Below are positions 48,352-49,713 of a DNA stretch of 64,000 nucleotides, one piece after another. Positions within the stretch are counted from its first letter, which is position 1, and the number at the start of each line of letters is the position of its first letter. The notes under the pieces are model-generated. The model did not search any database. It had not been told where the DNA came from and saw only the letters and a list, made by a program, of their open reading frames with translations. Made by a program: the position numbers and the translations under genes. Origin of the DNA: Escherichia phage YW01. Where the stretch lies: sequence record PV018828, one strand, 5' to 3'.

Positions 48352-49713
48352 TTAGTTGTTTGTTTCCATGTCAAAAGAGATTCCACGACCCGCTTCATCG
48401 GCAAACCGAACTGTGCGGGTTTGAGGTTCTAATACTTCAGGGTTGTTAGCAACAAAGCGGTCAGCGAGATTTCGACTGATGGTCTCAGCAAGTTCCTCAT
48501 GAGAAGGAACATCAAGACTACCTGCCACATCTTGGGCTACACCTTCATCAGTCCACACAGCCCTAACAGGTGCGTTGATATCACCAACAGCAAAACCCTG
48601 ACCAGAGAACTGACGTGCGCTAACAGTTAAACCATTTGGACGACCACGAGAAGGACTAGCCATCCATCTCTCCATAGAATCACTTGTAATACCAAGAGCT
48701 TCTTCAAAAGATGTTCTACGAGTAGGGCTTACTCTTCGTGACTCTTGTGCTCGGCGCATTGCAGGGGCTACAAACACCCCTTCAATTGCATTGTGCCGAT
48801 TAGGTTCATCTTCTCGACCAAGGAGATCTCCTCCTGTATTAGTTGTTAAGTTTGTCAACCCTTCAGACCAATATGCACGAATCTGGCTAGAGCCATGAAT
48901 GCTTGACATTAACTGAATCTCTTCATAAGGGATTCCAAAGAATCGACTCATGTCTCGGTTAACACAATATTGAGCACTTGTTGTATCCTCAATAAGAGAA
49001 ACCTGACCTAATCCATTAACCAGATGACTAACCGGCTGGGGTGTGGGAAGATATCGAGTTTGGGCCATGTATTGATGTGCAACTGCTGGAGAGGAAAATC
49101 TCAATACTTGCGAGTTAGGCCACTTCTTGTGAACGTATCTGATTTCACGACTAGAAACAACCACTGGACAGGGGGCGGTCATAGCCAAATACCCATGAGA
49201 AGTCATGAATAAATTGTCAAGAGTCATCGCACCACGACACATCATAGGAAAATTATCCAATACCTCTTCAATAGAAGTAGGATAATTAAACATGAATTGG
49301 ATACGAACCCCATTCCACTGAAACTCAATAATATCAGTGAATGTTAATTGAGAACCCCCAGCATAGGATTCGTTCGTAGCTTCAGCAAGAAGGGATGCAT
49401 ACTCGATATCTTGTGACTCTAGCCATTCCTTCACATTACTTTCAATCTCTCTTCCAAGAGCTTGCCAACGGTCAGTTGGGATGAATGTGTTTTGAGTTCT
49501 TGGTGTTTGTCCTCTGACAATAAAGATATCAATGTCATGTGGAGCTGTGTTATTAAGCACAGCATCTCGAACAGCCCCACCAGTAATGATGGGACAAATA
49601 CCGTCTGGAATCAAGTTGTTGTTAATCAACTGTTCAATGAAATGACGACCAACAGTGATGTCGGGTTGTTGAGCAACCTTATCTTCAATTCGGTTAATCG
49701 GGATAACAATCAT
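48352..49713 (-). CDS. Nucleotidyltransferase of the Pol-beta superfamily, CCA-adding/poly(A)-polymerase head-like (about 453 aa)
   Basis: ITGGAVRDAVLNNTAPHDIDIFI matches the GG-x-VRD ... D-x-D head motif; body divergent; Ser/Arg/Pro-rich probably disordered C-terminus; start moved to ATG 49713. Confidence 0.55.
   Translation of the reverse strand: MIVIPINRIEDKVAQQPDITVGRHFIEQLINNNLIPDGICPIITGGAVRDAVLNNTAPHDIDIFIVRGQTPRTQNTFIPTDRWQALGREIESNVKEWLESQDIEYASLLAEATNESYAGGSQLTFTDIIEFQWNGVRIQFMFNYPTSIEEVLDNFPMMCRGAMTLDNLFMTSHGYLAMTAPCPVVVSSREIRYVHKKWPNSQVLRFSSPAVAHQYMAQTRYLPTPQPVSHLVNGLGQVSLIEDTTSAQYCVNRDMSRFFGIPYEEIQLMSSIHGSSQIRAYWSEGLTNLTTNTGGDLLGREDEPNRHNAIEGVFVAPAMRRAQESRRVSPTRRTSFEEALGITSDSMERWMASPSRGRPNGLTVSARQFSGQGFAVGDINAPVRAVWTDEGVAQDVAGSLDVPSHEELAETISRNLADRFVANNPEVLEPQTRTVRFADEAGRGISFDMETNN

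Follow-up and report, generated by a model that had tools for sequence, protein, structure and literature searches.

What would a phage do with the head of a CCA-adding enzyme when the parts that give such enzymes their specificity are missing? The question is raised by a minus-strand gene in a 64,000-nucleotide stretch of DNA from Escherichia phage YW01 (sequence record PV018828; the whole stretch is called the window here), a phiEco32-like E. coli podophage of the genus Kuravirus (Gordonclarkvirinae) according to megablast and tblastn, with DNA identities of 93-96%. The gene is already catalogued as a nucleotidyltransferase in RefSeq and in PHROGs, and the annotation as such is not new. Our analysis gives good support to two further statements: the product, called NTase below, is a catalytically competent, stand-alone nucleotidyltransferase with an active site of the class II/poly(A) polymerase head type, and it is a large, elaborated branch of phage-specific "head-only" nucleotidyltransferases. 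As for its acceptor, RNA 3' ends are our tentative preference.

The catalytic head

The folded core of NTase (coordinates of all features are in Table 1) consists of a class II-type head at about residues 36-205, a family-specific insertion at residues 68-122, and a helical C-terminal subdomain at about residues 205-285, and is closed by a conserved [YW]-S-x-G-L motif (residues 281-286). An earlier note on this DNA had recognized a GGAVRD...DIDI head of the class II type, and translation, alignment to E. coli Cca and the structural neighbours described below all bear this out. Both halves of class II motif A (GGxVRD...DxD) are present, at residues 45-50 and 60-62. The residues G45, G46, R49, D50, D60 and D62 do not vary among 25 cluster representatives of only 22-35% identity to NTase, which argues that the motif is not a chance occurrence; F64 of DIDIF and Y117 of the flexible loop are also invariant in the family alignment. 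Where class II enzymes have motif B, F155 and C159 of FPMMC are at least 90% conserved and P156 is invariant. In the helix at residues 189-199, Y193 and K197 are invariant within a family signature R-[DE]-x-x-Y-x-x-[KR]-K-x-P; hhalign pairs this helix with the first helix of the class II neck, with low confidence only. Q139 and P156 are invariant throughout the family of phiEco32 gp73, the orthologue of NTase. A hand-threaded alignment that put Q139 on the third-carboxylate strand and R-[DE]-x-x-Y on motif EDxxR was dropped; hhalign places the class II strand EEYALARTE on residues 103-111.

The structure predictions agree with this picture. AlphaFold2 is confident for about residues 1-280 of the full-length protein, and a second model, of residues 1-285 with a 31-sequence alignment that included distant relatives, has a mean predicted local distance difference test score (pLDDT) of 88.5 and a predicted template modelling score of 0.86, the loop at residues 113-120 being its only weak stretch. 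The model shows the α/β fold, the hG[GS] helix start and the [DE]h[DE]h strand of the Pol-beta-like superfamily. The highest structural-neighbour score of the 1-285 model is to E. coli poly(A) polymerase I (PAP I; 11.4), followed by the CCA enzymes of T. maritima, human and B. stearothermophilus and the Aquifex class II enzyme 4wby (9.8-10.5), by the RNA-tailing enzymes TENT5, TUT4 and GLD-2 (7.2-8.3), and by DNA polymerases beta, lambda and mu, TdT, CD-NTases and MenT1 (5.6-7.4). Structure prediction had been proposed in the earlier note as a check, and it thus returns a Pol-beta fold with class II tRNA nucleotidyltransferases and a poly(A) polymerase as the best neighbours. Only 143-158 of the 285 residues align with the class II enzymes, so the part in common is roughly the head alone.

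Sequence profiles delimit the resemblance in a similar way. Sixteen sequences went into a class II head and neck profile: E. coli Cca, E. coli PAP I, seven from Enterobacterales and seven from phage-collection records. The NTase family was matched to it by hhalign at 89.7% probability (E = 2e-6). In the confident span, from residue 40 to about 120, motif A aligns, IEYASLLAE pairs with the class II strand EEYALARTE, and the flexible loops match, Y117 falling on the loop tyrosine; no confident alignment to this profile extends past about residue 120. The Pfam PolyA_pol head (PF01743) scores 20.4 bits against a gathering cutoff of 23, and 12.7-21.9 bits in relatives. Scans of NTase with NCBIfam and PADLOC gave no matches. 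A PDB sequence search with the single protein returned nothing, and with the family profile it returned motif A only, of the Planococcus and human CCA enzymes.

The earlier note had also stated that the remainder of the protein does not resemble the canonical neck and body, and this holds. Motif B (RRD) is not present: the homologous stretch reads L152-D153-N154-F-P-M-M-C, with position 154 variable in the family, and the FD..IC of small phage relatives aligns by hhalign on the class II sequence RRDLTINA. There is no ED..R within residues 1-290 that could serve as motif D (EDxxR), and no tRNA-binding body or tail domain (Pfam PolyA_pol_RNAbd, tRNA_NucTran2_2) is detectable. In CCA enzymes these elements, RRD, EDxxR, body and tail, provide ribose and base specificity and the grip on tRNA. 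Lacking RRD as ribose sensor, EDxxR as amino-acid template and a body and tail to measure the tRNA, NTase should be unable to make CCA in the manner of Cca, and judged by its sequence features it belongs neither to the CCA-adding enzymes nor to the orthologues of PAP I. Nor does it have the basic, Arg-rich C-terminal RNA-binding region and the full head, neck and body of the latter.

Head-only relatives and the C-terminal tail

The closest homologues lie within Kuravirus, where orthologues of 85-99.6% identity occur in 69 records, with the TH06 and EC.W8-1 proteins at up to 99.6%. The orthologue phiEco32 gp73 carries the RefSeq label "nucleotidyltransferase"; phrog_12715, of the same label, matches NTase over its full length (E = 2e-262), and phrog_1614 matches residues 35-155 (E = 1e-7). 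Two word-indexed homologue searches returned Kuravirus proteins only, and the distant relatives were reached with a mixed-genus alignment and with a profile run exhaustively against 1.84 billion cluster representatives. About 30 clusters were found below E = 1e-10, in which the domain always lies at the extreme N-terminus of proteins of 274-482 residues. Among cultured phages this gp73 family is represented in 97 Gordonclarkvirinae records only; the other members are from uncultured relatives. NTase has the attributes of the family, namely a core of about 290 residues from MI.IP, the invariant Y117, Q139, P156, Y193 and K197, and exonuclease and dCTP deaminase flanks.

Beyond the family, weaker profile matches comprise many proteins of about 170-290 residues with GGAVRD...DIDIF...FDxxICQ, and Foldseek against BFVD likewise finds many proteins of 167-254 residues, labelled "PolyA_pol head" or "nucleotidyltransferase", in podophages and myophages. 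When 29 small phage head-only nucleotidyltransferases were aligned as a group, hhalign joined them to the NTase family at 99.5% (E = 5e-23, residues 38-203) and to class II heads at 96.6% (E = 6e-10). Homology is clear for phrog_1614, fHe-Kpn01 Gp22, the proteins of LKD16 and LIMEzero, phAPEC8 gp083 and Caulobacter phage KSC gp012, which have in common with NTase the GGAVRD, the DIDIF, the Tyr loop, the IQ strand, the F(P/D)xxxC and the R..K..K(W/Y) helix; S. pneumoniae NP_344798.1 (2LA3) can be listed with these on structural grounds. The small phage proteins measure 167-290 residues, whereas the gp73 branch, a tight family separate from them, has about 290 folded residues and a tail of up to about 200. 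PF26128, which may be a recent Pfam family for the head-only group, is the precomputed label on many Kuravirus orthologues and small GGAVRD proteins, and no protein that we scanned matches it in our local Pfam copy. The 182-residue Gp22 of Klebsiella phage fHe-Kpn01, which aligns with family residues 25-198 and has SRELRMLNKW as its counterpart of the helix at residues 189-199 (SRELR..KW in the family comparison), was toxic on expression in E. coli (PMC7291057). Its gene directly follows that of the DNA polymerase with a 4-nt overlap; the small phAPEC8 gene lies shortly after DNA polymerase I, and that of Caulobacter phage KSC just before primase, helicase and polymerase. A search of the published literature found no paper on the activity of any head-only phage nucleotidyltransferase.

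The C-terminal 130 residues had been described as probably disordered and rich in Ser, Arg and Pro. The disorder is supported, with AlphaFold2 pLDDT below 50 for residues 282-414; the richness in Ser and Arg is confined to a 60-residue patch at residues 321-380 (15% each), and the claim for Pro fails, as it is not enriched. Residues 281-453 contain 10.4% Arg, 8.1% Ser, 5.2% Pro and no Lys, with a net charge of -8. Within Kuravirus, dN/dS (the ratio of nonsynonymous to synonymous substitution rates) is 0.11-0.12 for the tail versus 0.07-0.12 for the core, with mean pairwise identities of 81% and 88%, respectively; the tail is thus under purifying selection in this genus. The element at residues 415-453 is conserved among Kuravirus and could be a docking module. 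Between genera only the first ~290 residues can be aligned, and many family members end no more than 10-20 residues from the [YW]-S-x-G-L motif, without a tail.

NTase is also poor in lysine (0.9% Lys, isoelectric point (pI) 5.0). Family members contain 0.4-3.1% Lys versus a phage median of 5.7%, and all family tails contain none. We considered whether so acidic and Lys-poor a protein could be an RNA enzyme at all, and dropped the objection because the head and neck of enterobacterial Cca is similarly acidic and Lys-poor (pI 5.0-5.7, 2-3.6% Lys). The extreme depletion, with its Lys-free tails, is left as a curiosity. Other Lys-poor proteins of the window, whose median is 5.7%, are an ATP-grasp-like protein (2.0%), an amidoligase (PF12224; 2.5%), a DUF6453 protein (0.6%) and a Gly/Ser-rich protein (1.6%); the Lys-poor open reading frames (ORFs) besides that of NTase are 53824..55017 and 57571..58674 on the minus strand and 19996..21030 and 22907..23875 on the plus strand. 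Upstream of the replication genes, at about 52703..62278 on the minus strand, lies a peptide-ligase-type cluster, common to LUZ24, with genes for GGACT (gamma-glutamyl cyclotransferase-like), ATP-grasp/RimK-like, GlmS-type amidotransferase, amidoligase and COOH-NH2 ligase proteins, to which the lysine depletion might be related.

Possible acceptors

We tentatively propose that NTase adds untemplated nucleotides to RNA 3' ends, a possible rather than a probable reading. Tailing of another RNA had been named in the earlier note as one potential role; it is the one we prefer, as a live possibility. RNA 3' ends are chosen as acceptor since all close structural neighbours are RNA 3'-end enzymes and since uncontrolled tailing of RNA would account for the toxicity of the relative Gp22, overproduction of PAP I being toxic too. 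The detection of the SU10 orthologue by mass spectrometry and the purifying selection on the tail are further points in favour. By analogy with the enzyme family, the GGAVRD helix start together with D60 and D62 would hold the nucleoside triphosphate (NTP) and Mg2+, and the nucleoside monophosphate would be passed without a template to the acceptor hydroxyl. Acceptors could be transcripts of the host or the phage, or else tRNA ends, with a specificity other than CCA; the enzyme would be active in the replication phase of infection. The family-specific subdomain would select the substrate, helped in Kuravirus by the Arg-rich disordered tail and the small C-terminal module, through which the enzyme is probably held to RNA or a partner protein.

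Several points weigh against this proposal. The RNA acceptor is purely inferred, and we found no published activity for the NTase family. As RRD, which selects ribo-NTPs in class II enzymes, is missing, the donor need not be a ribonucleotide. Scans with Pfam and NCBIfam detect no dedicated RNA-binding domain. The tail is missing in many family members, which implies that it is not essential to the core function. Finally, NTase is locked between the exonuclease subunit and the dCTP deaminase, and the small relatives lie beside DNA-polymerase or primase genes, locations that speak for DNA or deoxynucleotide (dNTP) metabolism at least as much as for RNA.

These locations lead to a role on DNA, which we consider unlikely: NTase would work with the replisome and dNTP block and add a nucleotide to DNA, at a 3' end or as a covalent modification, aiding restriction resistance. 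The primase/helicase gene is followed by those for the exonuclease subunit, NTase and dCTP deaminase, and then by those for thioredoxin and ThyX; in most cases a Dps-like protein and NrdD are encoded there as well. This order is kept in Kuravirus, Nieuwekanaalvirus and Suseptimavirus, in uncultured relatives at 28-33% identity, and in the most divergent, tail-less clade at 24%. The exonuclease-NTase adjacency was found in every clade examined, and the NTase-dCTP deaminase adjacency in all clades whose contig extends to the downstream gene; in clade P0059, on a short contig, the exonuclease-NTase junction is seen and the contig ends ahead of an identifiable downstream gene. A role on DNA gains from this strict order of exonuclease, NTase and dCTP deaminase with translational coupling down to 24% identity, and from Pseudomonas phage LUZ24, which has the primase/helicase (45% identity), the exonuclease subunit and the amidoligase cluster in common but lacks NTase jointly with the dCTP deaminase and ThyX genes. 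The small relatives of fHe-Kpn01 and phAPEC8 right after DNA polymerase point the same way, and the loss of the RRD ribose sensor would allow the use of dNTPs. Still, we know of no class II-type head that acts on DNA, ThyX and dCTP deaminase are an ordinary dTTP supply route, and adjacency is weak evidence because the module order is widely conserved in these phages. The BASEL work found Gordonclarkvirinae strongly resistant to type I-III restriction-modification with no known modification genes, and named the NTase and dCTP deaminase genes as DNA-modification candidates (PMC11990801), which also favours this role. The window contains sites for EcoRI (11), EcoRV (32), EcoKI (11) and EcoP1 (107), and resistance to these four systems can therefore not be put down to site avoidance. 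EcoRV (32 observed versus 15 expected), HindIII, XbaI, NdeI and CCGG are not avoided, and GAAGA and CAGCAG are over-represented. On the other side, avoidance is extreme for CCWGG (1 observed versus 86 expected), PstI (0 versus 17), SacI (0 versus 17), NcoI (0 versus 10) and KpnI (0 versus 7), which suggests that the DNA is not generically protected; BamHI (1 versus 10) and GATC (134 versus 260) are also avoided. The more specific idea that NTase is a restriction-resistance factor, coupled to the replisome, devoid of ribose discrimination, placing a nucleotide onto DNA (at an end, or as a covalent modification of a new kind) and tethered by its Arg-rich tail to the split DNA polymerase, is in our view highly improbable.

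The toxicity of Gp22 would suit a host-directed modifier equally well, and NTase could nucleotidylate a protein or small molecule, or make or consume a signalling nucleotide, for host takeover or counter-defence. An invariant Y117 in a flexible loop beside the active site and the low lysine content of the whole family would be in keeping with this. Yet Y117 aligns with the loop tyrosine of class II enzymes and so has an ordinary explanation, enterobacterial Cca is likewise Lys-poor and acidic in its head and neck, no PADLOC model matches, and structural neighbours with such activities score far below the class II RNA enzymes; nor is the fold closer to that of defence-type nucleotidyltransferases (CD-NTase/cGAS-like, MenT/AbiEii, mCpol). 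We regard this reading as quite unlikely. A genuine but very divergent CCA-adding or repair enzyme for tRNA 3' ends damaged by host nucleases, the other role suggested in the earlier note, could point to the head, which is closest to class II CCA enzymes, and to tRNA-directed defences, which are common. It fares badly against the missing motifs B and D, body and tail. The single tRNA gene of phiEco32, tRNA-Arg(UCU), encodes its own CCA, and the window holds no tRNA genes. Canonical Cca head and neck is found by tblastn in 474 phage records, mostly of large phages and none of Gordonclarkvirinae, the host supplies Cca, and the inspected part of the genome has no annotated RNA ligase, kinase or phosphatase. 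Classical CCA maturation or repair by NTase is thus unlikely, though possible, and a divergent enzyme dedicated to it very unlikely. That NTase is a catalytically inactive scaffold or regulator that keeps the fold is hardly credible: the sub-threshold Pfam head score and the loss of several class II motifs would allow it, but all motif A residues for NTP-Mg2+ binding are invariant across deep divergence, and dN/dS is 0.07-0.12.

The E. coli phages of the Gordonclarkvirinae are abundant, have a broad host range and are of interest for therapy, and NTase is a core gene of theirs, retained at the same locus down to about 24% identity. It stands for a large, uncharacterized group of phage relatives of the CCA-enzyme head, at least one of them toxic to E. 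coli. Finding the acceptor of this tentatively RNA-tailing enzyme would show how the head of a CCA enzyme is put to new use once the domains that set its specificity are gone, and might reveal a new mechanism of host takeover or genome protection; the importance would be much greater if NTase did act on DNA or underlie restriction resistance.

Surrounding genes and comparison with known enzymes

Table 1. Features of the NTase gene and its surroundings, in window coordinates
Feature	Position	Strand	Basis or remark
NTase coding sequence	48352..49713	-	453 aa and stop; phiEco32 gp73 orthologue; ORF list, start context, phrog_12715, orthologues
Folded catalytic core, aa 1 to ~290	48844..49713	-	
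Motif A, first half, GGAVRD, aa 45-50; NTP/triphosphate-binding helix start	49564..49581	-	translation; aligns with E. coli Cca GGAVRD
Motif A, second half, DIDIF, aa 60-64; catalytic carboxylates D60 and D62	49522..49536	-	translation
Flexible loop TNESYAGG, aa 113-120	49354..49377	-	pLDDT <50 in both models; hhalign with class II loop KSGSGYTGF
FPMMC, aa 155-159; position of class II motif B (RRDFTINA)	49237..49251	-	family alignment, hhalign
Helix REIRYVHKKWP, aa 189-199	49117..49149	-	translation, conservation
Predicted disordered linker/tail, aa 291-414	48472..48843	-	pLDDT, composition
C-terminal element, aa 415-453, NLADRF...GISFDMETNN	48355..48471	-	predicted helix and beta-hairpin, pLDDT ~57-68
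3'-5' exonuclease subunit of DNA polymerase, 182 aa, upstream of NTase	49715..50263	-	Pfam and PHROG matches
dCTP deaminase, downstream of NTase	47809..48342	-	PF22769, 3.5e-34; phrog_1663
Family A DNA polymerase subunit, 602 aa	39053..40861	-	PF00476
Endonuclease VII-type ORF, 147 aa	50256..50699	-	PF02945, 1e-19
HNH_3 endonuclease ORF, 156 aa	45251..45721	-	PF13392, 1.6e-13
ThyX	44626..45282		
Thioredoxin	45708..45986		
Small ORF, 69 aa	47193..47402	-	no Pfam match
Small ORF, 69 aa	47402..47611	-	no Pfam match
Small ORF, 65 aa	47611..47808	-	no Pfam match

The ORF finder gave 48352..49770 (minus strand) with a GTG start. We take the ATG at 49713 as the real start because it lies 1 nt past the TAA of the upstream exonuclease gene, because MI(V/K)IP is the N-terminus of all homologues in the alignment, and because the annotated orthologues Bas91_0067 and phiEco32 phi32_73 use the matching start; the resulting length agrees with the roughly 450 residues of the earlier note, whose placement of the gene between a dCTP deaminase and a proofreading exonuclease the Pfam and PHROG matches confirm. 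Across this locus the K-12-infecting isolate Bas91 is 94.6% identical in DNA sequence. A promoter and terminator scan around the gene found nothing above chance. In phage SU10 the orthologue (CDS74) was detected by mass spectrometry with one peptide (7% coverage) in virions that were concentrated with polyethylene glycol and not CsCl-purified, alongside ATP-grasp, amidotransferase and YtfP-like early proteins (PMC4281155); its presence can reflect either carry-over or packaging.

The family A DNA polymerase is split, its exonuclease and polymerase subunits lying about 9 kb apart, as in LUZ24, where they are annotated "DNA polymerase part I/II/III". The endonuclease VII-type ORF, between the exonuclease subunit and the primase/helicase, is probably a homing endonuclease insertion; it is not found in Bas91 and phiEco32, where these two genes abut, and because of this extra ORF the DNA comparison has a query coverage of 89%. 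The HNH_3 ORF between ThyX and thioredoxin, which is not at the equivalent position in Bas91 and phiEco32 either, is likely a second homing endonuclease. Downstream of the dCTP deaminase, three small abutting ORFs, all ending in ...(V/K)(I/V)(Y/H)Y and conserved as hypothetical genes in Bas91, phiEco32 and EP335, look like tandem paralogues.

Among known systems, the class II CCA enzymes (E. coli Cca, 1MIV of B. stearothermophilus, 3H37 of T. maritima, 1OU5 of human) resemble NTase in the Pol-beta head, motif A, the Tyr loop and an acidic, Lys-poor catalytic part. They differ in that NTase has no RRD, EDxxR, body, tail or HD domain, and instead has 55 residues inserted behind the DxD strand, a helical subdomain of its own at about residues 205-285 and a disordered tail. 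PAP I (PcnB, 3AQL) is similar in its template-independent head, and its C-terminal region outside the fold is thought to aid RNA or partner binding; it is, however, a basic protein (pI 9.7, net charge +16) that keeps neck and body, whereas NTase has a pI of 5.0 and a Lys-free tail with a net charge of -8. The non-canonical poly(A)/(U) polymerases GLD-2 and TENT5/FAM46 have no RNA-binding domain of their own and are directed to their substrates by partner proteins, much as we propose for NTase with its tail and C-terminal module, but they belong to a class I-like eukaryotic lineage with another nucleotide-recognition motif and no sequence similarity. MenT and AbiEii are small toxic proteins of the nucleotidyltransferase fold that add nucleotides to tRNA acceptor ends (PMC10435456, PMC11541572); they are of the DUF1814-type family without GGxVRD, and NTase has neither a PADLOC match nor an antitoxin partner. 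Compared with these characterized systems, NTase is a new architectural variant of the class II nucleotidyltransferases, for which the earlier description as a CCA-enzyme-like head with a divergent body and a disordered tail is right.

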